NCBI GenBank assembly: GCA_012730105.1
Contig: JAAYBJ010000284.1
Location: 7,872 to 71,871 of the forward strand
Length of the DNA: 64,000 nt
Direction of reading: 5' to 3'
Source: Candidatus Hydrogenedentota bacterium
GTDB taxonomy: Bacteria; Hydrogenedentota; Hydrogenedentia; Hydrogenedentales; CAITNO01
The notes beneath the pieces are model-generated. The model had not been told where the DNA came from and did no database searches. It saw nothing but the letters and a program-made list of their open reading frames with translations. Shown here one piece after another: positions 5,580 through 48,748 of this stretch; the stretch's first letter is position 1, and every line of letters starts with the position of its first letter. The translations under genes were made by a program, and so were the position numbers.

Positions 5580-7193
5580 ATGAGCAAGATCGATACATTT
5601 AAAGAGGCGAATAAAGCACTTCCTGAAACCTATAGGGCTTGGCAGGTATTTGGCGCCGGGCTAGAAAACGTGGGGAAGGACGGCAAGCCGGTGTCCGTGC
5701 CGCTGCGTCCTCCCGCGCGCAACGAGGTGCTGCTTCGTGTGGACGCGCTGGGATTGTGTCTTTCCGACATGAAAATTATCGCGCAAGGCGGCAATCATCC
5801 GCGCCTGCGCGGCCGTGATCTGCAAAACGACCCGACGGTCCTGGGCCACGAATGCGCCGCGACGATTGTCGCCGTCGGCCATGATTGGAAGAACCAGTTT
5901 CAACCCGGCCAGCGCTTCATTGTTCAGGCCGACATCTACTACAAGGGTGTGGGCTACGCTTTTGGGTACATGATTCCCGGCGGCCTGGCGGAATATGCCT
6001 ACTTCGACGAGCGCGGACTTGCCGGGGACGAAGGCTGCTACCTGCTCCCGGTACAGGAAGGGACCGGCTATAGCGAAGCCGCGCTGAGCGAACCCTGGGC
6101 GTGTGTCGAAATGTCCTACGCCCTGGAAGACCGCGTGGAACCGACCGGCAAGAAACAGTTGATCGTAACGAAAGACTGCAGCGCCTGCAAAGAGCGTTTT
6201 CCGGGAGCGACCTTTGTCTCCCCGGCCCTGGAGGGCGTGGGGGAGGAGACCTATGACGACATCATCATCGCGAACCCGACGCCTGCGCTGGTGGAAACCC
6301 TGGGAGCGCGTTTAAACCCCAACGGGGTTATGTTCCTGGTCGGCGAACCCGCCGAAACCGGTGATGCCATGATTGACGTGGGCGCCGTTCATTACCAGAA
6401 CAAACGGTACCTCGGCGGCGGTGACACCCTGGACAAGATAGCGGAAGTCAACCGGCGTCAAGATTTGCTTCCAGGCGGAACGGGGCTTTTTATCGGCGCC
6501 GGCGGGCCCATGGGTCAAATGCACGTACAACGCGCCATTGAAAAGCAGAACGGGCTGGGTTGCGTGGTGGTGACCGATCTGGACCGGAAACGCCTGGACC
6601 ATATCGAAAACCGTTTTGGCACGCTTGCGCGTTCCCGCAATGTACAACTCATTACACTGGCCCCTACGGATTTCGATAGTCAGGAAGCCATGAACGCACG
6701 CATCGTTGAACTTGGCGGTCCGGATGGTTATTCAGACGTGGTCGTGCTTGCCCCGGTTCCCGCGCTGGTGCGGCAAGGGGCCGGCCTGGCGGCGCGAAAT
6801 GGCTTCGTCAACCTCTTCGCCGGACTGGCAACAGGCACTAAAGCGCCCGTTCCCATCGAACAACTTTGCCGCGGCGTCAAGATGATCGGGTGCAGCGGCA
6901 GCCGTATCAGTGACTTGAGGGCCGTTCTTGCCATGGTTGAGGGCAAGGCACTGGAAAGCAACCGTAGCGTGGCGGCCATCGGGGGGCTTGATGCCGCCCA
7001 CCTCGGACTAAAATCTGTGAAGGAGGCTTCCTATCCGGGCAAAATCATTATCTACACCCAGGTGCCTTCCTTTCCCTTGACCCCGCTCGAGAAACTGGCA
7101 GAAACAGAACCAGACATTGCCGCCCACCTGAGCGAAGATGGTTCTTGGACCAACGAGACGGAACGTGCTTTCCTGGAAAAGTACCTGCCGTAG
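5580..7193 (+). CDS. Zinc-type alcohol dehydrogenase (MDR superfamily), atypically long form
   Basis: 537 aa. GroES-like N-terminus with Cys…GHEcA zinc-ligand pattern (LGLCLSDM…GHECAATIVAVG) and a Rossmann GxGxxG (GAGGPMG). RBS GAAGGTAA upstream. Confidence 0.7.
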   Translation: MSKIDTFKEANKALPETYRAWQVFGAGLENVGKDGKPVSVPLRPPARNEVLLRVDALGLCLSDMKIIAQGGNHPRLRGRDLQNDPTVLGHECAATIVAVGHDWKNQFQPGQRFIVQADIYYKGVGYAFGYMIPGGLAEYAYFDERGLAGDEGCYLLPVQEGTGYSEAALSEPWACVEMSYALEDRVEPTGKKQLIVTKDCSACKERFPGATFVSPALEGVGEETYDDIIIANPTPALVETLGARLNPNGVMFLVGEPAETGDAMIDVGAVHYQNKRYLGGGDTLDKIAEVNRRQDLLPGGTGLFIGAGGPMGQMHVQRAIEKQNGLGCVVVTDLDRKRLDHIENRFGTLARSRNVQLITLAPTDFDSQEAMNARIVELGGPDGYSDVVVLAPVPALVRQGAGLAARNGFVNLFAGLATGTKAPVPIEQLCRGVKMIGCSGSRISDLRAVLAMVEGKALESNRSVAAIGGLDAAHLGLKSVKEASYPGKIIIYTQVPSFPLTPLEKLAETEPDIAAHLSEDGSWTNETERAFLEKYLP

Positions 7194-7220
7194 GGAAGAG
7201 AAAGGAGCCCGGGTGACGCG

Positions 7221-10200
7221 TTAATTCGAGACGTGCGCACCGCCCCTCCGGGTAAGCCACTGAAGCAACCGTTTGAAATCGTTGATGATCACATACATGG
7301 ACGGTATAATAAAAAGCACGATAAAGGTGGCAAAGAGAATACCATATCCCAGAGACAAGGCCATGGGTATCAGGAAACGTGCCTGCCGCGAGGTCTCGAA
7401 GATCATGGGGGCCAAGCCGCCGAAAGTCGTCAAGGTGGTCAAAAGCATCGGGCGAAAGCGCTGCACGGCTGAACTGTAGATGGCCATAAACGGATCCATG
7501 CCCTGTTCCCGTTGATTGGCGTTTGCGAAATTGATCATCACCAGTGAATCGTTCACCACCACCCCGGACAGGGCGACAATACCGAAGATACTGGGAATGC
7601 AAAGGTCGTATCCCATGAGCAGGTGTCCCCAGAAGGCACCAACAATGCCAAAGGGGATGCTCAACATGACGATAAAGGGCTGCAGATAGCTGCGAAACGG
7701 AATGGCAAGCATGGCATAAATGGCCAATAAGGCCATCGTAAATGTAATACGCAAACTACCGAAACTTTTTCTGATATCGGACTGATGCCCTTCAAAAGAG
7801 TAGCTTAGCCCGGGATAATCCCGGGTATACCGGGGTAAGATAGTCTGTTCAATCGCGGAGAGCACTTCCCCAGCGCGGCTTCTGGGGACGACATCGGCGG
7901 ATACCTGCACAACGCGTCTTCCATTCCTTCTGTTTATGGTGGTGTAGGCTCTGCCCCGGTCGAACTTGGCAATTTCCCGGAATGGCACAAACACGCCGGA
8001 CGGGGTGCGTAGCATCAGATCCTCAATCATCTGTTCAGAGGCACGGTCTTTTTTGGGCAGCCGTACCATGACTTTAATTTCATTTCTGCCCCGTTGTTGA
8101 CGCAACACCTCGGCGCCATACAGCGCGTGCCTCACCTGCCGGGCAACTTCACGGGCGGTCAGGCCGAGGCTTTTCCCTTCGGCTTTCAACGTAAAATCAA
8201 TTTGATTTTTTCCTGGCTCAAATCCATCGTCCACATCTTCAACGCCGGCGAAGGAAGCAATATCCTGGGCCAACTCCGCGCTCACCTTTTCCAGGATATC
8301 CATATCCAAATGCGTTATTTCAACCGTGACAGGACGCCCCCGTCCGCCGGGCCCACCCGAGTCCGCCGCGAAGCGCATGGTGTCTATACCGGAAAGTTCG
8401 CCCACCTCCGCACGCCACAGCTGGGTAAATTCGGAGGTACTCATGATATTTTTACGGATATCCGGTTCAATCAATTGAGCCCTTACCCTCCCGACATGAC
8501 CGCCCCCTAGTCCGATATCGGTAACCACGGCGGTGACTAACTCGGGATGACCTGCATCTTCCGCAACTTTCCTGGCGGCATCTTCAATGATTTTAACAAG
8601 CGCCTCTGTGCGCGAGACGGGCGCGCCATAGGGGAGTGCGATCTGCGCGTCCGCATAATCGGATTCCATGACCGGGAACAGTTGAAATCCCATTCTGCCG
8701 CTGAAGGCATACGCCAGGGTCGTGATCAGCAACGTCAAAGAAAAGGCCATCGTCACATAGCGGTATCGAACCGCCATCTTTACGACAGGCCCGTATTGAT
8801 GGTGGACCCACCAGGTAAATCCTCGACTGAAGGCCTGCTGCCATCCATGCAGTACTTTCAGGAGTCCTTTCAACTGACGGTCATGGTGGTGCCCCAAATG
8901 CCCGGGCAGGACAAACATGCATTCGATCAAGGATATTGTAAATGTTATGCATACCACCACGGGGATCATCTGAAACATTTTGCCTGTGGTGCCCGGAATG
9001 AAATAGATGGGGATAAACGCCGCTATGTTCGTGAGGATGCTGAACACAACCGATACGGCCACCTCACGTGCGCCGGCAATGGCGGCGTCCAAAAACTTCA
9101 TCCCCTGCTGATGATAAGAATAGATGTTTTCACCGACTACGATGGCATCGTCCACCACGATGCCCAGCGCAATAATATACGCGAAAAGAGACATCATATT
9201 AATGGTCACGTCAAAAAACGGCAGAAAAAGAAAGGAGCCCATAAAGGAAATGGGCACGCCCATCATGACCCAAAAGGCCAAACGCGCCTCCAGGAAGAGC
9301 CCGAGCAAGCCCAGTACGAGCACCAAGCCTATGGCGCCGTTCTTAAGCAACATGCCAAAACGCTGACGATAGGTCTCTGAGCGGTCATCATAGACATCGG
9401 TCATGACTCCGGGCGGCAAATAGGCCTGAAATTCCTCCAGTCGGGCCAGCGCGCCATCGGAAACCTGCATCGGGGTTTCCTTGCCAATACGGTATACCTC
9501 AATCATTACAGCGTTCTTGCCGTTATACCTCGAAAATCGGTCTGTATCGGCAAAACTGTCATCAATATCGGCGATATCACGCAACAGGACTTTGCTGCCG
9601 CTTTCCGTGTTGATTATCGGCAGTTCGGCGAATTGCTTACCGTAATCCCGTCTTTCCTTAAGTCGAACGAGGATTTCACCACCCTCTGTTTTCATGCCCC
9701 CGGCAGGAATATCGGCGGCGCTTTCGGTCAACTTTTGCGCCAGCATGCCCAGGGTCAGCCCATATCGGCGCAATTCATCCTGGTGCGGCTCAATACTGAT
9801 TTCAAGCGGGGGGAGGCCCTCAATATCAGCCTGGGTAACGTCGGGTGACTGGACGACAAACTCGCGGAGCCGCTCCGCCAGGGCATGCAGGCTTGTATTG
9901 GGCACATCGCCATACAGGACAATACTAAGGACCTCACGACGCCACTGGGTAATACGGGTTTCAGGTTCTTCCGCCTCCTCGGGAAAGGTAATGATACGGT
10001 CGACCTCGCTGGTAATTTCCTGGGCAAGCCTGAATACGTTGGCGCCGAGCAGCAATTCAATGGTAACGGTGCCCATTCCTTCCCGGGCTTCCGAAATGAC
10101 TTCGTCCACCCCCTCCAAATTACGCACGGCTTCTTCAATGGAAAGGAGGATTGAACTTTCCACTTCTTCAGGACTGGCCCCCGGATAAGCCACGGAGACG

Positions 10201-10370
10201 GTAACGGTATCAAGGGATACATCGGGGAACACTTCCTGGGTAATGTTCCGAAGCGAAAGAAAACCACCGACCAGACAGGCCAACATGATCAGGTTGGCCG
10301 CCACGCCGTGACCTGCCATCCAGGCAATCGGCCCGCGGGTATTCCCGGAATGCTTGTCCGGGCTGCTCAT
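7221..10370 (-). CDS. RND efflux transporter permease (AcrB/CzcA family)
   Basis: 1049 aa, 12-TM architecture, typical AcrB N-terminus (…GPIAWMAGHGVAANLIMLACLVGG…). Its start overlaps the stop of the upstream MFP gene. Confidence 0.9.
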   Translation of the reverse strand: MSSPDKHSGNTRGPIAWMAGHGVAANLIMLACLVGGFLSLRNITQEVFPDVSLDTVTVSVAYPGASPEEVESSILLSIEEAVRNLEGVDEVISEAREGMGTVTIELLLGANVFRLAQEITSEVDRIITFPEEAEEPETRITQWRREVLSIVLYGDVPNTSLHALAERLREFVVQSPDVTQADIEGLPPLEISIEPHQDELRRYGLTLGMLAQKLTESAADIPAGGMKTEGGEILVRLKERRDYGKQFAELPIINTESGSKVLLRDIADIDDSFADTDRFSRYNGKNAVMIEVYRIGKETPMQVSDGALARLEEFQAYLPPGVMTDVYDDRSETYRQRFGMLLKNGAIGLVLVLGLLGLFLEARLAFWVMMGVPISFMGSFLFLPFFDVTINMMSLFAYIIALGIVVDDAIVVGENIYSYHQQGMKFLDAAIAGAREVAVSVVFSILTNIAAFIPIYFIPGTTGKMFQMIPVVVCITFTISLIECMFVLPGHLGHHHDRQLKGLLKVLHGWQQAFSRGFTWWVHHQYGPVVKMAVRYRYVTMAFSLTLLITTLAYAFSGRMGFQLFPVMESDYADAQIALPYGAPVSRTEALVKIIEDAARKVAEDAGHPELVTAVVTDIGLGGGHVGRVRAQLIEPDIRKNIMSTSEFTQLWRAEVGELSGIDTMRFAADSGGPGGRGRPVTVEITHLDMDILEKVSAELAQDIASFAGVEDVDDGFEPGKNQIDFTLKAEGKSLGLTAREVARQVRHALYGAEVLRQQRGRNEIKVMVRLPKKDRASEQMIEDLMLRTPSGVFVPFREIAKFDRGRAYTTINRRNGRRVVQVSADVVPRSRAGEVLSAIEQTILPRYTRDYPGLSYSFEGHQSDIRKSFGSLRITFTMALLAIYAMLAIPFRSYLQPFIVMLSIPFGIVGAFWGHLLMGYDLCIPSIFGIVALSGVVVNDSLVMINFANANQREQGMDPFMAIYSSAVQRFRPMLLTTLTTFGGLAPMIFETSRQARFLIPMALSLGYGILFATFIVLFIIPSMYVIINDFKRLLQWLTRRGGAHVSN

Positions 10371-11659
10371 TGACCCGCATCCCGCGCATCGACTGTGCCC
10401 GAAGTTTCGTCTGTATCCGAAGGGGCGGCGGTGCGCAACAGCATCCCTTCCACGGGCGCAGCCAGGTCGGTGATGACCAGGGCCTCCCCGTCTAGAATGC
10501 CGTCAGAAATATACACTTCTTCCTGGGAACTCCAGGCCACGGTCACCGGACGAATGTTCAAGGTGTTTTCCGGGGTCATTATCCAAACCGTATTTCCCTC
10601 ATGAAGATGGGTGCGCGAGATGGACGCAATCCCGGGAATGGTTTTGCCTTCGATAAGCACCCGGACAAAGGAATCAAGCAACAGCACCCGCTCCGGGGCA
10701 TCATTCGCATGCAGGTTCAGAGGGTCCTCAACGGTTATAAGAAGGCGCGCCATGCGCCCCTGCGGCTCAAGATCCGGAAGCAGCCTTGCCACATGCCCGG
10801 TTCGGTGGTGTTCCTCGCCCCAGGCCACCGGATTGTAGACCCGGGCTAAGGAGCCCAGTTCGTCATTTGACTCCGGCAGCACTATCCATGACAGTTCATT
10901 CAGTGGCACGGATACTTCAATCCAGAATACATCGGTGCCCGCCAGTGTGGCCAATGAGCTTCCCGCCGAAACATAGGCGCCCTTTTCAACAGACCGGGTG
11001 AGAACAACGGCATTGAAGGGGGCGATAATGGCAGTCCGCTCCAGATCGAGTTTCGCCTTTTCCACCGCGCTTTCAGCAACGGCAACCGTTGCTTCCTTGG
11101 CTGCCAACTGGGGTTTTCGCAACAACAGATCAAGGTCCGGCGCTTCAATATTCTCCAAAAGCAGCTCGTATTCGCTCCGGGCCACGGCCTGTTGCCCCAT
11201 TTCGATGCGCACCTCGGATTCGGCCTTTACAAGATTGCCTTCTTGTTGTTCAAGGGCAAGTTCATAATCCTCCCGGTCCACCTGAAGAATCTTGGTATCT
11301 TTCTTCAGGATGCCGCCGGGGACAAAATCCGGGCTTACCTCCGTAATCTGGCCGCTTATTCGCGCCGCCAACTGTATGCGCAACGCGGGGATTACCGTCC
11401 CCATGGCATGTACGATAACCTGTCTATCCTCCAAAACAACCGGAACGGTGCCCACCAGAACAGCCTGCTTACGCGGCTTCTGTCTTTCAGGTACGGGACG
11501 GTTAATAAGCCAATACCGCGAAATAACGATTGTCACAAGTACCAACGTCGCAATCAAGAGCAACTGGATAATGGAAAATAGTGTTCTAAAAAAACGGGAC
11601 GTTTTCAGGGGTTGATTGCCATCAGTTTCTTTATAGGCGCTCATACTCGTTTTTCCCAT
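10367..11659 (-). CDS. RND efflux periplasmic adaptor (membrane fusion protein, HlyD-like)
   Basis: 430 aa. N-terminal TM anchor, coiled-coil region, beta-barrel/lipoyl-like segments. Operon position between OMF and RND. Confidence 0.85.
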   Translation of the reverse strand: MGKTSMSAYKETDGNQPLKTSRFFRTLFSIIQLLLIATLVLVTIVISRYWLINRPVPERQKPRKQAVLVGTVPVVLEDRQVIVHAMGTVIPALRIQLAARISGQITEVSPDFVPGGILKKDTKILQVDREDYELALEQQEGNLVKAESEVRIEMGQQAVARSEYELLLENIEAPDLDLLLRKPQLAAKEATVAVAESAVEKAKLDLERTAIIAPFNAVVLTRSVEKGAYVSAGSSLATLAGTDVFWIEVSVPLNELSWIVLPESNDELGSLARVYNPVAWGEEHHRTGHVARLLPDLEPQGRMARLLITVEDPLNLHANDAPERVLLLDSFVRVLIEGKTIPGIASISRTHLHEGNTVWIMTPENTLNIRPVTVAWSSQEEVYISDGILDGEALVITDLAAPVEGMLLRTAAPSDTDETSGTVDARDAGQ

Positions 11660-11698
11660 AGTGGGGGAAACACCATGTTTACACTCCGCATTCTGTTT

Positions 11699-13324
11699 TT
11701 AATTACTTGATTGGACCGATGTTTCGTCGACTCCGGTTAATCCGGAAACGCTCTCTTGCTCCGGCATATCAAGGCCATGTTTTTCCATCCAAGTGCCGCC
11801 CAAGGCGAGGCAGATCTGGAGCCGGTATTGGAGGCGAACGAATTCCGCCTGTACTATGCGCCTCTCCACGGCCTGCAGTTGCGTCATGGCAGTCAGGACC
11901 GGCAAATAATCTATCACGCCGTTCAAATAGCGCTGCATGGCCTGTTCATACGTGTCTTTTATGGCCTTTTGTTCCTGTTTCAGCAATTCGACATATTCGG
12001 CCTGTTTTTCTTCACGCATCATTGCCAGTTCCACTTCCAGAACACTTTCCAGGATGCTTAATTGATACGCGGCAAGGCGTTCTTCAACCACGGCGCGGGT
12101 GCGTTCAACTTCCGCCTTGCGCCGTCCTCCGTCAAAAAGCGGCCCTGTCAGGCTTCCCGCCAACCTTGCCAGCCAGTTGTCAAAAATGGCGGTCCACTCT
12201 TCCGCGTTATAGGACGCCCCGGCGGAAAGCCTGATCGCGGGCATCCTGTCCGCACGCGCGGCGCTAACATACCAATCCGCTGCCTGCAGGCGCAAGCCCG
12301 TTGCCCGGACATCGGGGCGGTTTGCCAGCAAATCCGCCGGCAAGCCCGCTTCGGGCAAGGGACCCACTTCCGGTAAAACATCCGTCTTGATGGCAGGCGT
12401 ATTTCGAGGCGCCTTACCCATCAACACAGCCAATTCGAGTAATGCCGCGTCCAGCGACTCTTCCAGGGTCGGTACCAAAGAGGCGGTCTGTGCCGTCACC
12501 TGCCGCTGTTGATAGACATCAAGCGCCGTGGCGAGGCCCCTGGCAAAGCGAAACTTTATAAGAGTCAACGTTGTCTCGTTCAGTGTATGCTGCTCATTAA
12601 CCAGGTTTAGCACCTGCCGGTTGGCAGCAACTGTCAGCCACTGCCGTGCAACCGTTCCGGAAAGGCTCAGCATGGCGCCGTATACATCTTCCCTGGACGA
12701 CTCCAGTTCAAGCAGGGCCGCCTGATGCTGCGAACGGACACGCCCCCAAAGATCCACTTCGTAACTGCTCGCCAACCCGAAACTGTAGGAATGGCTTACC
12801 GTGGTAACGCTGGAGGGGGGGGATGCTTCCGTCAAGGTCTGGGCTGCCTGGAGGCGTGACTGCAGGGAGCGAAGTTCAGAGGAGAACGAACTTTCGCCAC
12901 CGCCTTGCACATCCGGATTCAGCAAGGTTCCCAATGCGGCCAGCCGTTTGTTCAACACTTCCAAATCAGATGCTGCGAGATCCGCCTGCATATGACGGCG
13001 GCTGACGGAGGTTTCTCCCGTAATACTCAGTTCCGGGAATCTGCCGGCTCCCGCTTTACGTGCAAGTTGCTCTGCCTGCAACAACCGGGAATTCATCTGC
13101 TGCAATGACAAGTTGCCGGCCAAAGCCGCCTCAATTAATTGGTTCAGTTCCTCGGAATTGAACGAGGTCCACCAACATTCCGGAACAGGCGCACCAGCGT
13201 CATACAACGTATAGGCTTCAGGAAAAAAGGCTTTTTGATCCCTCGGTTCGGGATCAAAACGGGCACAGCCGAACACGGCCGCAATAAAAAACAGGACGCT
13301 TGTAATTGAAAGAAAAAAACGCAT
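11699..13324 (-). CDS. Efflux outer-membrane factor (TolC/NodT-family lipoprotein)
   Basis: 541 aa. Lipoprotein signal (…AAVFGC), two tandem TolC-like repeats. First gene of the OMF-MFP-RND operon. Confidence 0.85.
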   Translation of the reverse strand: MRFFLSITSVLFFIAAVFGCARFDPEPRDQKAFFPEAYTLYDAGAPVPECWWTSFNSEELNQLIEAALAGNLSLQQMNSRLLQAEQLARKAGAGRFPELSITGETSVSRRHMQADLAASDLEVLNKRLAALGTLLNPDVQGGGESSFSSELRSLQSRLQAAQTLTEASPPSSVTTVSHSYSFGLASSYEVDLWGRVRSQHQAALLELESSREDVYGAMLSLSGTVARQWLTVAANRQVLNLVNEQHTLNETTLTLIKFRFARGLATALDVYQQRQVTAQTASLVPTLEESLDAALLELAVLMGKAPRNTPAIKTDVLPEVGPLPEAGLPADLLANRPDVRATGLRLQAADWYVSAARADRMPAIRLSAGASYNAEEWTAIFDNWLARLAGSLTGPLFDGGRRKAEVERTRAVVEERLAAYQLSILESVLEVELAMMREEKQAEYVELLKQEQKAIKDTYEQAMQRYLNGVIDYLPVLTAMTQLQAVERRIVQAEFVRLQYRLQICLALGGTWMEKHGLDMPEQESVSGLTGVDETSVQSSN

Positions 13325-13629
13325 GTGATCTCGTGCTTATGGGTAACTACCAATAGCATTGGGATGCTTCGCCTCTCGACAGGCGTTGCCATGCTTCTAC
13401 TCTCAAGAAATAAACAGACATCCTGATAAGGGCGATTTCCTCATATGAAGAACATGATGATACAAAATTAGGCAGGACAATTTCATTATCTGTGAAAAGG
13501 GACTTCATTCCCTTGCGTTTGACACACTCTACAGACACGATGAAATTTCGTTGGAGGCATTCATCAGGACTATTCCTCCCGGTAGGATTTGATACCATCT
13601 CCGAACGAATGCTAGAATTCAGCGACCGG

Positions 13630-13840
13630 TTCTCAGGGCGATAGTCGCTCTGACGCTAAGAGGGAATCCGGTGAGAATCCGGAACTGCCCCGCAGCGGTA
13701 AACAGGAACGAACGGCGCGATCGTGGTGTCTTTTCAACACGGTAAACGCACTGGTCCCATTGGATGGGGCTGGGAAGCGGCGTCAAGTAGGAACAGCCTC
13801 CAGGGAATATGCCTGTAAGTCCGAAGACCTGCCGGAAAAA
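13630..13840 (+). promoter_or_regulatory. Cobalamin (AdoCbl) riboswitch
   Basis: Matches the conserved core …AGAGGGAATCCGGTGAGAATCCGGAACTGCCCCGCAGCGGTAAACAGG…, then …GCACTGGTCCC…GGGAAGCGGCG…, then the B12-box …GTAAGTCCGAAGACCTGCCGG. Lies ~120 nt upstream of the CDS at 13958. Confidence 0.85.
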
Positions 13841-13957
13841 GTAATGCGACGCTATTCTAATTCTGAAAGCCATGTTCGAGGTGGAATATCGCAGAGTCAA
13901 TTTCCCCCTAGCATGCCTTGACGACTTGAATGGCCCGCAAGAAACGAGGGTTTCATC

Positions 13958-15346
13958 ATGAATCAAAATGCACCAGTTCCCCACCCGACCTCCTTTTCAT
14001 CCCTTGTCGTAAGACACAGTCTGTTATTGATTGTTGTCTTTCACCTTGCATTGTCAGCGGTTGCACAAGGGCCGTCTTCTTTAAACCAAGCCCTGATTAA
14101 GCCTTATTACATGTTTCCGGTGTCTTTGGAATCAGCGCTGGTCAGTTTTGACTGGGACGCCTCGGGGGCACTCCACTATACCGTGGGTGACCCAAATTAC
14201 GGGTTAAAATTGGAAGTATATAAGCTTTCACAAGACACCCCAATTCTGGTTTATGAAACCGCAAGCGCTTGGGTCGGCTCATTGCTGACTTGTATCGGAG
14301 ATTACATTTACTTTAATGACGGCGGGGATTACTTGCGGGGAGACTTTAATTACTATTTCTACAACGCATCAAACCCGGAAACCGTGGTGCCTCTGCTAAT
14401 AGCACCTTACGGCGCCAGCCTCTGGGGTGTTACCGGCCGCGGTACGGATGAACTTTTTGCTTCCGGTTCCACGGCAACCTGGGGACCGGCATCGTTATTT
14501 TACAGTCCCCTGGACAGTTCGGGCATGCTGGAATCCACGCCTCCGGTGGTATTCGGTGAGATTGGCGATTCCCCTGGCCCCATGGCCTTTGATCCCTCCG
14601 GTAATCTGTACTATGTGCCGGGCTATGCCTACAGCGGCACGGCAACGATTTACCGTTGGAACGTCCAGGAGGTGGATGCCGCTTTGACAGGCGGGTCCGG
14701 TATGGGTCTTCAGCCCGCCGGACACGACTGGGCGACATTACCCGCGCCCTACGACGGTGCGACAGGCATGATTGCCGACCCCTATGGGAACATTTATGTT
14801 ACGGCAACATCCTGGGGCGCGCCCAGCCAACTGCTGGCATTCAGGGAAGACAACGCAATGGTGACACCCGCCGCGGAATATGTTGGAAGACTGGAAACAT
14901 TACGTTACCGGGATAACGCCATCTACATGAGTTGCGCGAACGGTATTTTTCGTATGCCGTTACTCACCGTGGAATTCTCCCTTGAAGACACGGATGTACT
15001 GGCCACAGTGGGGGAGACCGCGGTCTTTGCGATTAACGCAACAGGCGGCATAGGCAACCGAAGCTATCACTGGTACCGAATGGACGATCAGAATACGAGA
15101 GTACTCGTGGGAACCGACCTGTCCCACTATTCCATGACCGCCCAAAGTGAAGACTCGGGAACCGTCTATTTCTGCCTGGTCAAGGATGATGTGTATTCGA
15201 TTGAATCGCCCCATTTCAGCCTGACGGTTCAAGACCCGGTACCCTTGGCAGCCCCCGTAATATTGTTGTCCGGCGCGATCATACTTGCCGTGGCGGGCAG
15301 TATCGTGCTTATTAAACGCCGTTCCCCGGCAGAAGATATTGCCTGA
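13958..15346 (+). CDS. Secreted beta-propeller + Ig-like domain protein with C-terminal exosortase-type sorting anchor (VPLPA/PEP-CTERM-like)
   Basis: 462 aa. Signal peptide. About 6 repeated blade motifs (GDPNYG…, GDYIYFNDGGDY, SGNLYYVPGYAY, YGNIYVTATSW, NAIYMSCANGIF). Ig-like domain (…DSGTVYFCLV…). C-terminus VPLAAPVILLSGAIILAVAGSIVLIKRRS. Preceded by the B12 riboswitch. Confidence 0.7.
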   Translation: MNQNAPVPHPTSFSSLVVRHSLLLIVVFHLALSAVAQGPSSLNQALIKPYYMFPVSLESALVSFDWDASGALHYTVGDPNYGLKLEVYKLSQDTPILVYETASAWVGSLLTCIGDYIYFNDGGDYLRGDFNYYFYNASNPETVVPLLIAPYGASLWGVTGRGTDELFASGSTATWGPASLFYSPLDSSGMLESTPPVVFGEIGDSPGPMAFDPSGNLYYVPGYAYSGTATIYRWNVQEVDAALTGGSGMGLQPAGHDWATLPAPYDGATGMIADPYGNIYVTATSWGAPSQLLAFREDNAMVTPAAEYVGRLETLRYRDNAIYMSCANGIFRMPLLTVEFSLEDTDVLATVGETAVFAINATGGIGNRSYHWYRMDDQNTRVLVGTDLSHYSMTAQSEDSGTVYFCLVKDDVYSIESPHFSLTVQDPVPLAAPVILLSGAIILAVAGSIVLIKRRSPAEDIA

Positions 15347-15431
15347 AAACAGCCCGGCCGAAAAGTTGCAAAACACTCCTTGTTTTTGCTAAAGTATGTT
15401 CACTCTCTTGAGGGGATATGCAGCCATATAC

Positions 15432-15508
<77 letters not shown>

Positions 15509-15520
15509 TTTGTTTTTATG

Positions 15521-15551
15521 CCGCCTGGTTTTGCCAGGCGGTATTTTTTTT
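15521..15551 (+). terminator. Rho-independent terminator downstream of tRNA-Asp
   Basis: GC hairpin CCGCCTGG-ttttg-CCAGGCGG followed by a T9 tract. Functional on the + strand only. Confidence 0.7.
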
Positions 15552-34790: not shown

Positions 34791-36215
34791 CTATGAACGT
34801 ATCATCTTGGTGAGTTGATCGATTCTCTGGCGTGCCGCCCGATCGTTTTCCGCATGGTGAGACATTTTGTCACAGGCATACAGCACAGTCGTATGGTCCC
34901 GCCCGCCAAAGTGTTCGCCCACATCGCTCAGGGACAGCCCCGGGACCAGGGTCTTGCAGAGATACATCGCCAGTTGCCGCGGGTAGACCACCTGTTGTTT
35001 GCGGCTTTTCCCGCGCAAATCCGCAATACGCACGTCAAAGTGTTCCGCCACGGCGCGTTGTATCTGTTCCACGGTAATGGGCCTGATCTTTTCGCTGCCG
35101 ATAAGATCCCGCAACACATTTTCCACCATGGCCAGCGTAATCTTTTGCTCGGTCAATTTACTGTACGCGTATACGGTAATCAACGCGCCTTCGAGTTCCC
35201 TGATATTCGTGGTGATATAGGTTGCGATATACCGCAGCACCTCTGAGGGAACATTGATATTGTCCATCTTCGCCTTGTTTTGCAAAATGGCGATGCGCGT
35301 CTCCAAATCCGGAGGCTGGATATCCGTGACGAGTCCCCACTCGAACCGCGACACCAAACGCTGTTCAATACCCTCGATCTCCTTGGGACTGCGGTCACTG
35401 GAGATCACAATCTGTTTGTGTGCGTCAAACAGCGCATTAAAGGTGTGAAAGAACTCTTCCTGCGTCGCCTCCTTGCCGGAGATGAAATGTATATCATCGA
35501 TAAGGAGCATATCCACGCGTCTGTATTTCGCACGGAAACGCTGGGTGTCCTTTTCGGCGATGCTCTGGATCAGCTCATTCGTAAACGCTTCGGAAGAAAG
35601 GAAAACGACCTTGGAACTCGGATCCGCCGCAAGCAACCATTGGCCCACGGCCTGCATCAAATGGGTTTTCCCCAGCCCGGTGCCCCCGTATAAAAACAGG
35701 GGATTATACGCGCGTCCAGGGGATTGGACAACCGCTTTCGCGGCCGCGTGCGCGAAGCGGTTCCCGTTGCCGATCACAAAGCGATCAAACGTGTACTTCG
35801 GGTTAAACCCCGGATAACTCTGTTTTGTTCTGCCCGCGTGTTGTCGAGACGGAGTAGACGAAACCGACGGAACTGATCTACTGTTTTTTTTCTCAGAAGC
35901 GGGGGAACCGGACTCGGCATAGGGCATATACTTGACGGTTTTGAGCGCGGGCTCTTCACGCCTCAACGCTTCCAGTACGGCTTCCTGATAGTGGTCTTCA
36001 AGCCAATTCGCAAAAAAAGTGCTGGGCACACGGACCGTAATCACCCCTTCGTGATACCCATCATACGATGTTTGCAGGAACCAGTTTTTGTAGCTGTATT
36101 CATCAAGTGTATCGCGTAAATGTATTTGTGCCCGATCCCAGAGATTATCATGTATTCCATTAACTTTTGCATTTCCAGTCTGCATCAGTTCATTCATGAA
36201 TAAACCACCCTTCAT
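34791..36215 (-). CDS. dnaA: Chromosomal replication initiator protein DnaA
   Basis: 474 aa. AAA+ Walker A GGTGLGKTHL, sensor motifs, C-terminal DNA-binding domain (…RDHTTVLYACDKM…). Confidence 0.95.
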   Translation of the reverse strand: MKGGLFMNELMQTGNAKVNGIHDNLWDRAQIHLRDTLDEYSYKNWFLQTSYDGYHEGVITVRVPSTFFANWLEDHYQEAVLEALRREEPALKTVKYMPYAESGSPASEKKNSRSVPSVSSTPSRQHAGRTKQSYPGFNPKYTFDRFVIGNGNRFAHAAAKAVVQSPGRAYNPLFLYGGTGLGKTHLMQAVGQWLLAADPSSKVVFLSSEAFTNELIQSIAEKDTQRFRAKYRRVDMLLIDDIHFISGKEATQEEFFHTFNALFDAHKQIVISSDRSPKEIEGIEQRLVSRFEWGLVTDIQPPDLETRIAILQNKAKMDNINVPSEVLRYIATYITTNIRELEGALITVYAYSKLTEQKITLAMVENVLRDLIGSEKIRPITVEQIQRAVAEHFDVRIADLRGKSRKQQVVYPRQLAMYLCKTLVPGLSLSDVGEHFGGRDHTTVLYACDKMSHHAENDRAARQRIDQLTKMIRS

Positions 36216-43256: not shown

Positions 43257-45713
43257 TCAGATAAAGAGATTCATATCCGCCTGCTCAGCGCGTCCCAGGT
43301 AGGCGCCCACACCACCGATTTCAATACCGTCGATGAGTTCTTCTTTTTTGATGCCCATAACATCCATGCTCATGGAACATACAACCAGCCGTATGCCGGC
43401 GGCACGGGCGGCCGCGACCAGTTCCTCGGGAGCCATTACATTCTTGGTTTTCATGACATACCGCATCATCATGGAACCTACCCCGGCCATGTTCATTTTT
43501 GAAAGGCGCAACTTGCCGGGGCCTTTGGGCATCATCATACCGAACATCCGGTCAAGCAGTCCCTTGGACACCCGCGGCGGCTGCGCCTTGCGCAACACGT
43601 TGATTCCCCAAAAGGTGAAAAAGATGGTTACATCACTGTCCATGGCGGCCGCTCCGTTCGCAATGACAAAGGTCGCCATGACGCGATCCAGGTCGTCGCT
43701 GAAGCAGACAATGGTTTTTGATTTCCTGCCGGTTGGAGGGACTGCCGGAACAAGCCCTTGAGGAGCGGGGACTGTCGCTGCCAATCCCCGGCGTATGCGC
43801 GCGACATAACGGCCACCATCAGGTCTCGCTTCAAGCAGGGTATTTCCAGTGCTTGTGCACCAAGCGGGAATATCCGCGATGAATCCCACATCCGTGGCCG
43901 TCACCTCCAGAACATCTCCGGCGTTCATTCTGCTCATGCTTTGTTTTACCCTGGAAAGAGGACCGGGACACTGCAGGCCGCACACGTCCAGCTTTTGCGT
44001 CGTTACGGCGCCCTCCGGCGGCGATGCCTCAGGTGCCGAGGCAGAAGGTTCACGCTTGGAGTTGTCCACGCAAGCAGTTCCTGCGCCACCGGTGCCCCCG
44101 CCATTAAACCAGGACCAGGTACGATAGCCGCCATTCAGGTTGACCACATCAAATCCGGCCTGCTTCAACTGGCGGTAAGCGATATAGCCTCGCAGCCCTA
44201 CCGCGCAATACACGCCAATCTTGCGGTCTCGGGGCAGTTCGGCGTGCCGCTTGCGCAATTCCTCGAGTGGAATAATAGTCGCCCCGGAAATAACACCACA
44301 CTCCGTCTCATCCGGCATACGCACATCCAGCCAGAAAATATCCCGCTCAGCATCGTCCGCCTCTACTGTCAACGCGTCGCCTTTAATCATGTTGTGCGCG
44401 GTAAAACCAAGCATGTTGATGCCGCTTTTCGCGGAATTATACTGTGGTGAATAAGCCAGTTCCAGGTGTTCCAGCGCCTCGGCGTTCATCTTCTGGCTTA
44501 CGGCCACAGCCAAGACATCAATAGCATCATTGACGCCTTCCGGCCCGACAACCTGAGCCCCGAGCAGGAGCCCTTCAGGACTGAACAAGCCCTTTAAGGA
44601 AACGGGAACCGCCCCTGGATAGTATTTGGCGTGCTGCATGGGATGGATGTAGACACGAAAATAAGGTCGTCCTGCCTTCTTGAGGCGTTTTTCACTCCAC
44701 CCGGTACATGCAGCGACCTGGTTAAACACCTTAACAATGGAGGTGCCCAGAACTCCCGGATACGAAGCGGGCCTCCCACAAATGTTATCCGCCGCAATTC
44801 TCGCCTGCCGATTGACCGGCCCAGCCAGCGGCACAGCAGCGTCCTCTCCCGTGATAAGATCCCTGACCTGTACGGCGTCACCCACCGCATAGATATTCGC
44901 ATCGCTGGTCCGCATCCGATCATTTACCCTGATATGGCCACGTGGGCCGAGTTCAAGTCCGGCCTCGCGGGCAAGTTCAGAGCGGGGGGCCACCCCGGCG
45001 CACAGGCAAACCATATCCGCAGATATGCTGGATCCGTCATTCAAGGCCACCAGTTTTTCGTCGATGGAGACAACAGACGCATTCAGGCGCACTTCAACCC
45101 CGTTGAGTTGCAGTTCCTGGAGAAGGGTGGAAGTCATCTCCCGGTCCAAGGGGGGCAAGACTTGATCCAACATTTCGACCAGAGCAACTTTCACGCCGCG
45201 TTTTCGGAGGTTTTCGGCCAGTTCAAGGCCGATAAATCCGGCGCCGATGACACAGGCTTTCTCGACAGCATCCACCTTGTCTTTAAGGCGATCCATATCG
45301 TTTAGACTGTTCAGGGTGTACACGGCAGGCCCGTTAATACCCGGGATATCGGGGCGTATCGGCGCAGCGCCCGGTGCAAGCACCAGTACGTCATAGGATT
45401 GACGAGATGTTTGGCCGTCTTTTAGGTTGATGACTTCTACCATTTTATTCGCGATATCAATACGCCGCACTTCATGGCCCGTCCGAATATCTAGCCCATA
45501 TCGCGCGCGCAGGGTCTCCGCGCTTTGCACGATCATATTGGCACGATCTTCAATAACACCGCCCACATAGTAGGGCATACCACAGTTCGCAAAGGAAACC
45601 GCCTCGCCCTTTTCATAAACAATCACTTCCAAGGATTCATCAAGCCGCTTGATGCGCGCCGCACAGCTCATGCCGCCCGCCACACCGCCCACAATCACAA
45701 TCGTCTTAGCCAT
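43257..45713 (-). CDS. Four-domain CoA-disulfide/persulfide reductase fusion: CoADR (FAD/NAD) – rhodanese – TusA – DsrE-like
   Basis: 818 aa. CoADR active-site SFANCGMPYY and GxGxxG. Rhodanese Cys loop VYCAVGLRG. TusA CPGP motif (LQCPGPLSRV). C-terminal DsrE/DsrF-like domain. RBS AAGGAGAA. Confidence 0.85.
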   Translation of the reverse strand: MAKTIVIVGGVAGGMSCAARIKRLDESLEVIVYEKGEAVSFANCGMPYYVGGVIEDRANMIVQSAETLRARYGLDIRTGHEVRRIDIANKMVEVINLKDGQTSRQSYDVLVLAPGAAPIRPDIPGINGPAVYTLNSLNDMDRLKDKVDAVEKACVIGAGFIGLELAENLRKRGVKVALVEMLDQVLPPLDREMTSTLLQELQLNGVEVRLNASVVSIDEKLVALNDGSSISADMVCLCAGVAPRSELAREAGLELGPRGHIRVNDRMRTSDANIYAVGDAVQVRDLITGEDAAVPLAGPVNRQARIAADNICGRPASYPGVLGTSIVKVFNQVAACTGWSEKRLKKAGRPYFRVYIHPMQHAKYYPGAVPVSLKGLFSPEGLLLGAQVVGPEGVNDAIDVLAVAVSQKMNAEALEHLELAYSPQYNSAKSGINMLGFTAHNMIKGDALTVEADDAERDIFWLDVRMPDETECGVISGATIIPLEELRKRHAELPRDRKIGVYCAVGLRGYIAYRQLKQAGFDVVNLNGGYRTWSWFNGGGTGGAGTACVDNSKREPSASAPEASPPEGAVTTQKLDVCGLQCPGPLSRVKQSMSRMNAGDVLEVTATDVGFIADIPAWCTSTGNTLLEARPDGGRYVARIRRGLAATVPAPQGLVPAVPPTGRKSKTIVCFSDDLDRVMATFVIANGAAAMDSDVTIFFTFWGINVLRKAQPPRVSKGLLDRMFGMMMPKGPGKLRLSKMNMAGVGSMMMRYVMKTKNVMAPEELVAAARAAGIRLVVCSMSMDVMGIKKEELIDGIEIGGVGAYLGRAEQADMNLFI

Positions 45714-46252: not shown

Positions 46253-48748
<2,496 letters not shown>

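Follow-up and report, generated by a model that had tools for sequence, protein, structure and literature searches.

In the 64,000-nucleotide stretch of DNA analyzed here (the window), the region 13610–13957 is a genuine cobalamin riboswitch lying upstream of, and on the same strand as, a gene (13958–15346, + strand) that encodes a 462 aa protein consisting of an exported six-bladed beta-propeller, an Ig-like domain and a C-terminal membrane tail. We refer to the family of this propeller as A; it is unnamed and has no family model in Pfam or NCBIfam. The evidence as a whole is best explained, with a probability of about 0.6, by a riboswitch-gated, envelope-held propeller that takes part in corrinoid scavenging as a candidate binder. 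Its likeliest candidate function would be to capture corrinoids, or to hand them off, while tethered to the cell envelope, with B12 shortage as the inducing condition.

The covariance model RF00174 matched the leader at 13610–13850 (+ strand) with 88.4 bits at a gathering score of 31.5 (E = 1.8e-20, model positions 1–189, not truncated), and the aptamer was found to carry a large P6 extension. A preliminary description of this DNA had predicted such a match with an E-value below 1e-5 and had quoted three conserved motif blocks, all of which were located where it had placed them. Direct reading of the leader letters gave the T-loop core motif GGGAATCCGGTGAGAATCCGG at 13662–13682 and the B12 box AAGTCCGAAGACCTGCCGG at 13818–13836; the L5 loop CCCCG lies inside the aptamer at about 13686–13690 (+ strand). 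A putative sigma-70-like promoter, assigned by consensus match (TTGATA and TAGAAT separated by 18 nt, plus a TG extension; 10 of the 12 consensus positions agree), is located at 13589–13618 (+ strand) and overlaps the 5' end of the RF00174 match. The minimum free energy fold of the whole leader was no more stable than that of shuffled sequence (z = 0.06) and was therefore uninformative.

The expression platform (13851–13957, + strand) comprises the 107 nt between the end of the aptamer and the ATG at 13958, and no intrinsic terminator was detected in it. It contains the Shine-Dalgarno sequence GAGGG (13946–13950, + strand), located 7 nt before the ATG and held within a small hairpin, GAAAC-GAGG-GUUUC (13941–13954, + strand). 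The GAGGG sequence was unchanged in 15 of 15 Hydrogenedentota leaders, and the hairpin folded in seven of them (the window and six close relatives), being weak or absent in the remaining, more divergent loci, a point against the explanation favoured here. Since the pairing also shifts its register among loci, a role for the hairpin is something that we only infer, and its loop may be the L13 partner of L5. Plentiful cobalamin would shut off the single downstream gene if the element behaves as an OFF switch, most likely by an L5–L13 loop-loop contact that would hide the invariant ribosome-binding site.

The gene at 13958–15346 is the sole gene downstream of the riboswitch on the + strand, in agreement with the earlier claim that the riboswitch can regulate no other. 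It is followed on its 3' side by a tRNA-Asp gene (15432–15508) and then by a terminator-like hairpin (15518–15544). Its product is identical to the protein P0001 from public metagenomes. As had been proposed, the gene does not encode a TonB-dependent receptor, an ABC component or a cobalamin biosynthesis enzyme, and the host is not a member of Bacteroidetes, the nearest relatives being Candidatus Hydrogenedentota MAGs. Transport and exosortase genes were absent from the 36 ORFs scanned in the window, and a TonB-dependent receptor was found neither in the window nor among the neighbours in about 40 related loci. Near the propeller gene of the window and its clade, no btuB or btuFCD genes were found, and none for the partners B and C described below, which counts against the favoured explanation. 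Conserved synteny around the Hydrogenedentota propeller genes did not extend beyond close relatives. Other genes in the window include an RND efflux operon, fatty-acid oxidation genes, glycoside hydrolases, dnaA, gyrB and gyrA; E. coli-type DnaA boxes were not enriched.

Modeling of the protein using AlphaFold2 (pLDDT 88.7, pTM 0.82) bore out the architecture suggested at the outset, namely a signal peptide, about six blades and an Ig-like domain. The Sec-type signal peptide occupies residues 1–36 (13958–14065, + strand), with a helix at residues 13–33 in the model; cleavage is predicted at AVA|QG from the A-x-A rule, and there is no lipobox cysteine in the signal region (...LALSAVA|QGPSS). 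The predicted ectodomain comprises residues 37–425 (14066–15232). The propeller occupies residues ~40–340 (14075–14977, + strand) and was modeled as six four-stranded blades over residues ~48–340. It is followed by an eight-stranded Ig-like beta-sandwich at residues 346–425 (14993–15232, + strand). The equivalent region of the homolog from locus L017 matches Pfam Ig_3 and I-set, and the domain is confined to Hydrogenedentota members, the Kiritimatiellia homologs having other C-terminal domains. A Pfam scan of the window protein returned a single SBBP repeat as the sole match.

The C-terminal tail (15233–15343, + strand) consists of DPVPLAAP, a membrane helix (residues 431–455, 15248–15322) and KRR, that is, a Pro-containing motif, a hydrophobic helix and a basic cluster at the extreme C-terminus. 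The order of [EP]P[VM]P, membrane helix and basic residues is conserved among Hydrogenedentota homologs. This tripartite layout equally fits a plain membrane anchor. The preliminary description had read it as a VPLAAP-TM-KRR sorting signal of an exosortase-anchored protein. The tail itself is present, but in a search of NCBIfam and Pfam with the whole protein and six isolated tails (E ≤ 10) it stayed below the cut-off of every sorting model. The PEP-CTERM and other sorting models (TIGR02595, PF07589 and variants) likewise remained below cut-off for the window protein, five homolog tails and P0002, and LPXTG, MYXO-CTERM and GlyGly-CTERM gave only sub-threshold noise in these searches. No tail resembling DPVPLAAP-helix-KRR was found in other proteins of the window. 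With no sorting model matched and no exosortase gene among the scanned ORFs of the 64 kb, the exosortase part of that claim is not supported for this protein. In contrast, the distant A members P0060 and P0072, as well as the first-gene products of loci L039 and L042, pass PEP-CTERM cut-offs. The tail would serve as a membrane anchor or else as a divergent sorting signal, and it could have arisen by degeneration of a PEP-CTERM signal like that of its relatives. A plain C-terminal inner-membrane anchor facing the periplasm and exosortase anchoring are equally possible. In a diderm, a C-terminal helix would leave the protein anchored to the inner membrane on its periplasmic side, and exposure at the surface would require a sortase-like step; its cellular location, including the "surface" location proposed earlier, should be taken as presumptive.

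To delimit family A, the profiles A1 and A2 were used, the first sequence of both being the window protein; membership was defined by a full-length match to the propeller profile A2 together with the motifs SFDWD, FNDGG and RLET. At E ≤ 1e-30 the profile A2 recovered 68 cluster representatives, and at E ≤ 1e-10 it recovered 100. Clustered at 50% identity, the family amounts to about 100 clusters, distributed over Hydrogenedentota, Kiritimatiellia, Verrucomicrobiota and Planctomycetota; its invariant motifs include SFDWD, FNDGG, GATG..D and RLET, and the window protein qualifies as a member. Residues W66, W156, R233/W234 and R311/E313 are likewise invariant in the family. The propeller is the only module common to all of these lineages, while the C-terminal parts vary. 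In each of the 26 genome loci with upstream DNA, RF00174 lay upstream of A on its strand; it was also found upstream of the distant members P0055, P0060 and P0068, the Chthoniobacter flavus A gene and one Planctomycetota locus. In all, the propeller was linked to the riboswitch in 31/31 testable loci (those with enough upstream DNA) from four lineages. A literature search found no link of Hydrogenedentes or Kiritimatiellia to B12 riboswitches, and one co-mention of PEP-CTERM and a cobalamin riboswitch proved coincidental.

Outside the window's clade, the A gene adjoins, or is fused with, a gene for a second exported domain, B, whose best structural matches are the B12-binding proteins BtuH2 and BtuG1. 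B is located downstream of A in the loci L029, L032, L034 and L035, and it forms the C-terminus of a conserved upstream partner protein in 11 Kiritimatiellia and Verrucomicrobiota loci. In L017, which lies in the complete 5.1 Mb Hydrogenedentota genome OY782877.1, B is fused to A in one protein of 1123 aa; this was the only match when HMM searches for the ~770-aa Kiritimatiellia partner and the B domain were run on the window and the other Hydrogenedentota loci. B carries a PEP-CTERM signal that passes the cut-offs or an N-terminal membrane anchor; its weak similarity to LIC_13355 was uninformative. A pseudopilin-like gene, C, lies 3' of B in most Verrucomicrobiota and Planctomycetota operons. 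RF00174 was found at six of the seven distinct B-C loci sampled, the lone exception being that of Ruficoccus amylovorans, where the first gene is not A and no riboswitch was detected even at E ≤ 1. The cultured Chthoniobacter flavus Ellin428 has a full A-B-C operon with a riboswitch; its A gene lies at 7826–8995 of locus L035, and the neighbouring B gene is CfE428DRAFT_2133. As A, B and C are all exported, a B12-independent isozyme is argued against.

These associations are also compatible with a propeller that belongs to the B12-starvation regulon and does not bind corrinoids itself, serving instead as a docking site or scaffold for B, a pseudopilus or a transporter, or presenting B12-loaded carriers. 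NHL, YWTD and SGL propellers are common protein-interaction platforms, the two or three tandem propellers of the A proteins P0035 and P0036 are typical of scaffolds, and almost every A is accompanied by B, as a pair or in a fusion; B is similar to a domain proven to bind B12 and could, like DUF4465, do the binding. However, about 15 Hydrogenedentota loci have A as their sole gene under riboswitch control and neither B nor C nearby. Moreover, in L042, where the order is riboswitch, DUF4465 with PEP-CTERM, B, C, CobT, CobS and CobC-like, the known binder DUF4465 occupies the position held elsewhere by A, which suggests that the first gene supplies binding. We regard a scaffold that does not bind corrinoids as unlikely.

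The occurrence of A under B12 riboswitches in four lineages, often paired or fused with B, indicates that the family probably belongs to a B12-scavenging system that has not been described so far. The preliminary description had arrived at B12 acquisition from the usual role of B12 riboswitches and by comparison with BtuG, the Bacteroides surface lipoprotein that captures B12, is classified as Pfam PF16819, and is riboswitch-controlled and induced by B12 shortage (PMC6143338, PMC10404256). The acquisition reading draws its strongest support from the comparison of loci, namely the 31/31 linkage, the fused or adjacent BtuH-like domain and the replacement of A by DUF4465 in L042, but A is not a relative of BtuG. 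Both are exported beta-propellers under a cobalamin riboswitch that are associated with a BtuH-type domain, and BtuG1 is a propeller–BtuH domain fusion just as the L017 protein is a fusion of the B domain and the A propeller. However, BtuG has seven blades, a lipobox and BtuB as its neighbour and complex partner, whereas the window protein has six blades, lacks both a lipobox and a btuB neighbour, and does not match PF16819, and these differences led us to reject it as a BtuG relative. No BtuG chain in the PDB matched the propeller profile A2 at E ≤ 10. As a corrinoid binder, A would be a functional analog and not a homolog of BtuG.

The Bacteroides B12-binding accessory protein BtuH (PDB 7BIZ; PMC8941943) differs from the putative B12 binder B in anchoring, since B has PEP-CTERM or an N-terminal membrane anchor and not a lipobox; B is not encoded in the window, and the window protein itself has no BtuH-like domain. 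The DUF4465/BtuJ jelly-roll proteins are proven B12 binders, secreted and riboswitch-linked, which also occur in Verrucomicrobiota and Planctomycetota (PMC13398666). Their fold is unrelated to the propeller of A and there is no sequence similarity between them.

The six-bladed fold itself is shared with the SGL, Drp35 and NHL families. This generic SGL/NHL-type fold, which often serves as an enzyme or a protein-interaction module, counted against binding by A. We know of no SGL, Drp35 or NHL family linked to B12. The fold also raises the question of whether the propeller could be an extracytoplasmic enzyme of the SGL/lactonase/hydrolase type that is induced by B12 shortage and releases or remodels corrinoids, for example from carrier molecules or detritus. 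However, identity to such proteins was only 6–15%, and the window protein matched neither the SGL and NHL models of Pfam nor any other enzyme or family-level model of this group. The invariant Asp residues belong to FDxxG, a structural motif that recurs in each blade. In the only alignable blade, the near-invariant Thr of GATG falls at the position of D229, the catalytic calcium ligand of DFPase. We consider an enzyme improbable.

Under B12 shortage the protein could also serve another purpose, for example to attach the cell to particles or to partner cells that produce B12, or, in a B12 producer, to capture cobalt. The combination of a propeller, an Ig-like domain and an anchor resembles adhesins, and B12 riboswitches also control cobalt transporters in B12 producers. 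PEP-CTERM exoproteins can scavenge metals, as exemplified by ZepA, which takes up this role for zinc within a dedicated starvation regulon under the Zur regulator (PMC10957091). ZepA is a precedent for an exported micronutrient scavenger of the exosortase type, and distant A members and B have canonical PEP-CTERM tails; it differs in ligand, fold and regulator (Zur versus a riboswitch), and the tail of the window protein fails the PEP-CTERM models. Against adhesion or cobalt capture, the linked partners are B12-specific, with B resembling BtuH, and the L042 operon combines DUF4465 with cobT, cobS and a cobC-like gene, which act in lower-ligand attachment during corrinoid salvage. In addition, cobalt-transport genes were seen in no locus, and we consider these functions very improbable.

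Corrinoid scavenging by an envelope-held propeller would then proceed as follows. When B12 is scarce, the Sec-exported propeller with its Ig-like stalk would be made and held at the envelope by the C-terminal membrane helix. In related lineages, A would work in corrinoid scavenging beside the BtuH-like B and the pseudopilin-like C, while in the window's clade it stands alone at its locus. Its most likely role would be to bind extracytoplasmic cobalamin or other corrinoids and to pass them to the uptake machinery. A further proposal, which is tentative and rather doubtful, is that Hydrogenedentota and the PVC phyla (Verrucomicrobiota, Kiritimatiellia and Planctomycetota) possess a new riboswitch-controlled A-B-C apparatus with an exosortase-sorted or membrane-tethered A, which would take up corrinoids and carry them across the envelope without needing an adjacent BtuB-type receptor, and that the window A is a stand-alone direct B12 binder.

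Accessory envelope proteins that capture B12 decide competitive fitness in gut Bacteroides, and they have so far been characterized almost only there (BtuG, H, J and K), the exception being in-vitro B12-binding assays of a few DUF4465 proteins of other phyla. The present analysis adds an unnamed B12-riboswitch-linked family in four environmentally widespread, mostly uncultured lineages. It differs from the Bacteroides systems in the type of propeller and in anchoring (PEP-CTERM or a C-terminal helix), and it has a BtuH-like partner and, unexpectedly, a pseudopilin-like one. The idea lends itself to direct testing in cultured Chthoniobacter flavus Ellin428, which contains the whole A-B-C operon together with its riboswitch. 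If the idea is confirmed, B12 capture would have recruited propellers a second time and independently, with the candidate binder A as the new family, and a concrete role in nutrient uptake would emerge for certain PEP-CTERM proteins and for part of the enigmatic pseudopilin-like proteins of the PVC phyla. It would also show how Hydrogenedentota, Kiritimatiellia, Verrucomicrobiota and Planctomycetota compete for B12.

Scanning the whole window against Rfam 15 revealed a single riboswitch, a cobalamin riboswitch (RF00174) at 13610–13850 on the + strand, which scores 88.4 bits where the gathering score is 31.5 (E = 1.8e-20). The hit is untruncated and spans the model from end to end. A preliminary description had proposed this riboswitch from three motif blocks, all of which were located in the sequence, and had expected an E-value below 1e-5; the cobalamin aptamer is genuine. 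Upstream of the ATG at 13958, positions 13589–13618 hold a sigma-70-like promoter (TTGATA-18-TAGAAT, extended by TG), and the leader contains no terminator-like hairpin between the aptamer and this ATG. The ribosome-binding site GAGGG, located 7 nt 5' of the ATG, is invariant in 15/15 Hydrogenedentota leaders, and in the window and six close relatives it is held in a GAAAC/GUUUC hairpin. By analogy with established cobalamin riboswitches, ligand binding would bring loop L5 (CCCCG, about 13686–13690) into contact with the Shine-Dalgarno-bearing loop L13, and this contact would block translation. This step has only moderate support, since divergent loci show just a weak hairpin.

The ORF at 13958–15346 (+) is the sole same-strand gene downstream of the riboswitch, in agreement with the one-gene control suggested earlier. 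It is followed by tRNA-Asp(GTC) (15432–15508) and a strong terminator-like hairpin (15518–15544). No terminator was found between the stop codon and the tRNA, and the riboswitch-controlled transcript may extend into the tRNA; a promoter-like sequence, TTGCAA..TAAAGT (about 15366–15396), could drive the tRNA separately. The same tRNA also lies 3' of homologs in loci L001 (72% identical) and L004 (47% identical). Elsewhere, the window contains dnaA (34791–36215, −), gyrB (46280–48748) and gyrA (48796–51363), which probably places it close to the replication origin; it has no excess of E. coli-type DnaA boxes (12 vs. 10.8 expected). An 817-aa protein encoded at 43257–45713 (−) combines pyridine-nucleotide disulfide oxidoreductase, rhodanese, TusA and DsrE/DsrF-like domains, which is a sulfur-relay fusion architecture.

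In the 462-aa product of the riboswitch-controlled gene, Pfam detected one SBBP propeller repeat only (26.1 bits) and NCBIfam gave nothing meaningful. Modeling using AlphaFold2 with 27 homologs led to a confident model (pLDDT 88.7, pTM 0.82), which bore out the propeller, Ig-like domain and C-terminal helix described from the sequence. It contains an N-terminal helix (residues 13–33), read as a signal peptide with an AVA|QG cleavage site and no cysteine, six four-stranded blades (residues ~48–340), an eight-stranded Ig-like sandwich (346–425) and a membrane helix (431–455) followed by KRR. The protein is thus predicted to be exported via Sec, with a propeller and Ig-like ectodomain tethered through the C-terminal helix.

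The tail, DPVPLAAP-helix-KRR, had been considered an exosortase sorting signal. The tail itself is real, and the Hydrogenedentota homologs retain its order of an [EP]P[VM]P motif, a membrane helix and basic residues. However, PEP-CTERM, VPXXXP, VPLPA and other curated sorting models gave no match at cut-off with either the whole protein or isolated tails, and neither an exosortase among the window ORFs scanned nor a second such tail among the window proteins was found. The architecture fits a simple type-I membrane anchor equally well, which in a diderm would place the ectodomain in the periplasm. Distant family members end in canonical VPEP-helix-RRR tails passing TIGR02595 or PF07589, so a degenerate PEP-CTERM descendant is plausible. 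An RND efflux operon with all its components (NodT-type outer-membrane factor, adaptor, AcrB-type pump; 7221–13324, −) is transcribed away from the promoter region of the riboswitch. It is evidence of a diderm envelope and so is relevant to the site of a protein anchored in this way.

A word-indexed search revealed only 34 relatives, the named ones from Candidatus Hydrogenedentes, and a scan of one genome per species found 28 loci with homologs in Hydrogenedentota (up to 72% identity), Kiritimatiellia and other Verrucomicrobiota. When 1.84 billion cluster representatives were searched exhaustively with a propeller-only HMM profile, 288 matched at E ≤ 1e-3, 100 at E ≤ 1e-10 and 68 at E ≤ 1e-30. 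Many of the matching proteins consist of a lone propeller, 320–390 aa in length, with a PEP-CTERM tail; tandem copies, two or three per polypeptide, occur in some members, namely P0035 (894 aa), P0036 (924 aa) and L018 (5863–8757). RF00174 was found upstream on the same strand in 26/26 genome loci with upstream DNA (L015 and L028, which start at a contig end, were not counted). Among distant members, leaving aside three contigs with ≤280 nt of upstream DNA, it precedes P0055 (91 bits), P0068 (73 bits) and P0060 (37 bits). It also precedes the propeller gene of the cultured Chthoniobacter flavus Ellin428 (L035; riboswitch 48 bits, propeller HMM E = 7.8e-55) and a frameshifted copy in a Planctomycetota MAG (L038). 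In total, the riboswitch lies upstream in 31/31 testable loci, and the link is a property of the propeller family, designated A.

Kiritimatiellia homologs carry FG-GAP or other domains in place of the Ig-like domain and membrane tail. Only the propeller is common to all lineages, which makes it the B12-linked module. An extracytoplasmic SGL-type enzyme is improbable for this propeller, since a near-invariant Thr aligns with the catalytic D229 of DFPase and the invariant Asp residues belong to a repeated structural FDxxG motif. Among the close Hydrogenedentota relatives of the window locus, the A gene is monocistronic without conserved neighbours. In one Hydrogenedentes MAG (L015), an Acido-Lenti-1 RNA (RF01687, 45.5 bits, 1105–1151) lies just past the homolog stop codon. 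In L024, a DUF1638 and hydantoinase/oxoprolinase-like fusion (7926–10886) is directly 3' of a Kiritimatiellia-type propeller gene; DUF1638 is often encoded near corrinoid-dependent methyltransferases.

Two partners accompany A in other lineages. Component B is a ~280-aa domain with the motifs GPYS..DAPIPGFVGPDG...GFDLEAVG. It occurs as a PEP-CTERM protein encoded directly downstream of A (L029, L032, L034, L035); at the C-terminus of a conserved ~770-aa protein that also has He_PIG Ig-like domains and whose gene separates the riboswitch from A in 11 Kiritimatiellia/Verrucomicrobiota loci; and at the N-terminus of one 1123-aa protein from Hydrogenedentota (L017, 4243–9830, chromosome OY782877.1). 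The latter, a Rosetta-stone fusion, continues through Big_12/CopC-like Ig domains into a C-terminal half in which the A propeller is followed by an Ig-like domain and a membrane tail. The gene after it encodes 772 aa without a Pfam match, and its similar tail, MPLLSTY-helix-RKR, suggests that Hydrogenedentota may have a C-terminal signal specific to the lineage.

Component C (~260–300 aa) has a prepilin-type methylation motif (N_methyl), a GspG-like N-terminus and a C-terminal DGH motif, and is consistently the last gene of the riboswitch operons. It comes after B in L017 (9834–10727), L029 (10358–11059), L032 (2295–3104), L034 (6445–7221), L035 (10305–11102) and L037–L042, including L038 (10421–11338, −), where it has its own second cobalamin riboswitch (11329–11519, −, 100.8 bits). 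We know of no explanation for a role of a pseudopilin-like protein in B12 uptake. RF00174 is present in 6/7 distinct B–C loci sampled. The exception, the B–C locus of Ruficoccus amylovorans (L037, 7796–11162), in which a different PEP-CTERM protein precedes the pair, has no A gene and no riboswitch even at E ≤ 1; therefore, B–C may work outside B12 control or under another regulator.

The BtuH domain has picomolar affinity for B12 and is found by itself, alongside Ig-like PKD domains or, in BtuG1, joined to a propeller (PMC8941943). B, which is BtuH-like, shows the same three arrangements: alone, with Ig-like domains and propeller-fused. In a Verrucomicrobia MAG (L042, 5937–11397), RF00174 is followed by a DUF4465 gene with PEP-CTERM (E = 4.9e-50), B, C, CobT, CobS and a CobC-like phosphatase. 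B12 binding by DUF4465 proteins has been proven by experiment (PMC13398666), and a proven binder family therefore sits where the propeller stands elsewhere. This operon runs on into lower-ligand attachment genes, so that exported candidate B12-binding proteins are co-transcribed with cytoplasmic corrinoid genes.

The comparative evidence suggests, with a probability of roughly 0.6, that the window protein serves corrinoid acquisition, most likely binding cobalamin or other corrinoids and handing them on as an independently recruited analog of BtuG. A scaffold or docking function without corrinoid binding would fit the frequent use of such propellers in protein interactions and the almost constant pairing or fusion of A with B; this is nevertheless unlikely, because in about 15 Hydrogenedentota loci A is the sole riboswitch-controlled gene. 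Another role, such as adhesion or cobalt capture, is very unlikely given B12-specific partners, and the export of every component in practice rules out a B12-independent isozyme.

The proposed corrinoid-acquisition system would work like the accessory B12-binding proteins BtuG, BtuH and BtuJ of Bacteroides. However, the window protein differs from BtuG in every testable defining feature, namely family model, number of blades, lipobox and adjacency to btuB. Neither the A propellers nor B fall within any Pfam or NCBIfam family, and full-text literature searches found no published description of the family. The zinc-scavenging PEP-CTERM exoprotein ZepA (PMC10957091) is a conceptual precedent for exosortase-type micronutrient scavengers. 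We rate riboswitch-controlled extracytoplasmic B12-capture accessory proteins as a known kind, and the propeller family, the phyla, the anchoring and the unexplained pseudopilin-like partner as new. Tentatively, A, B and C could form a distinct uptake apparatus of Hydrogenedentota and PVC phyla, independent of an adjacent BtuB. Chthoniobacter flavus Ellin428 has all four elements, namely the riboswitch, A, B (CfE428DRAFT_2133) and C (L035, 7568–11102, SLWZ01000003.1), with a divergent DUF6580 membrane protein gene upstream (6783–7367, −), and this cultured bacterium is a ready experimental system.
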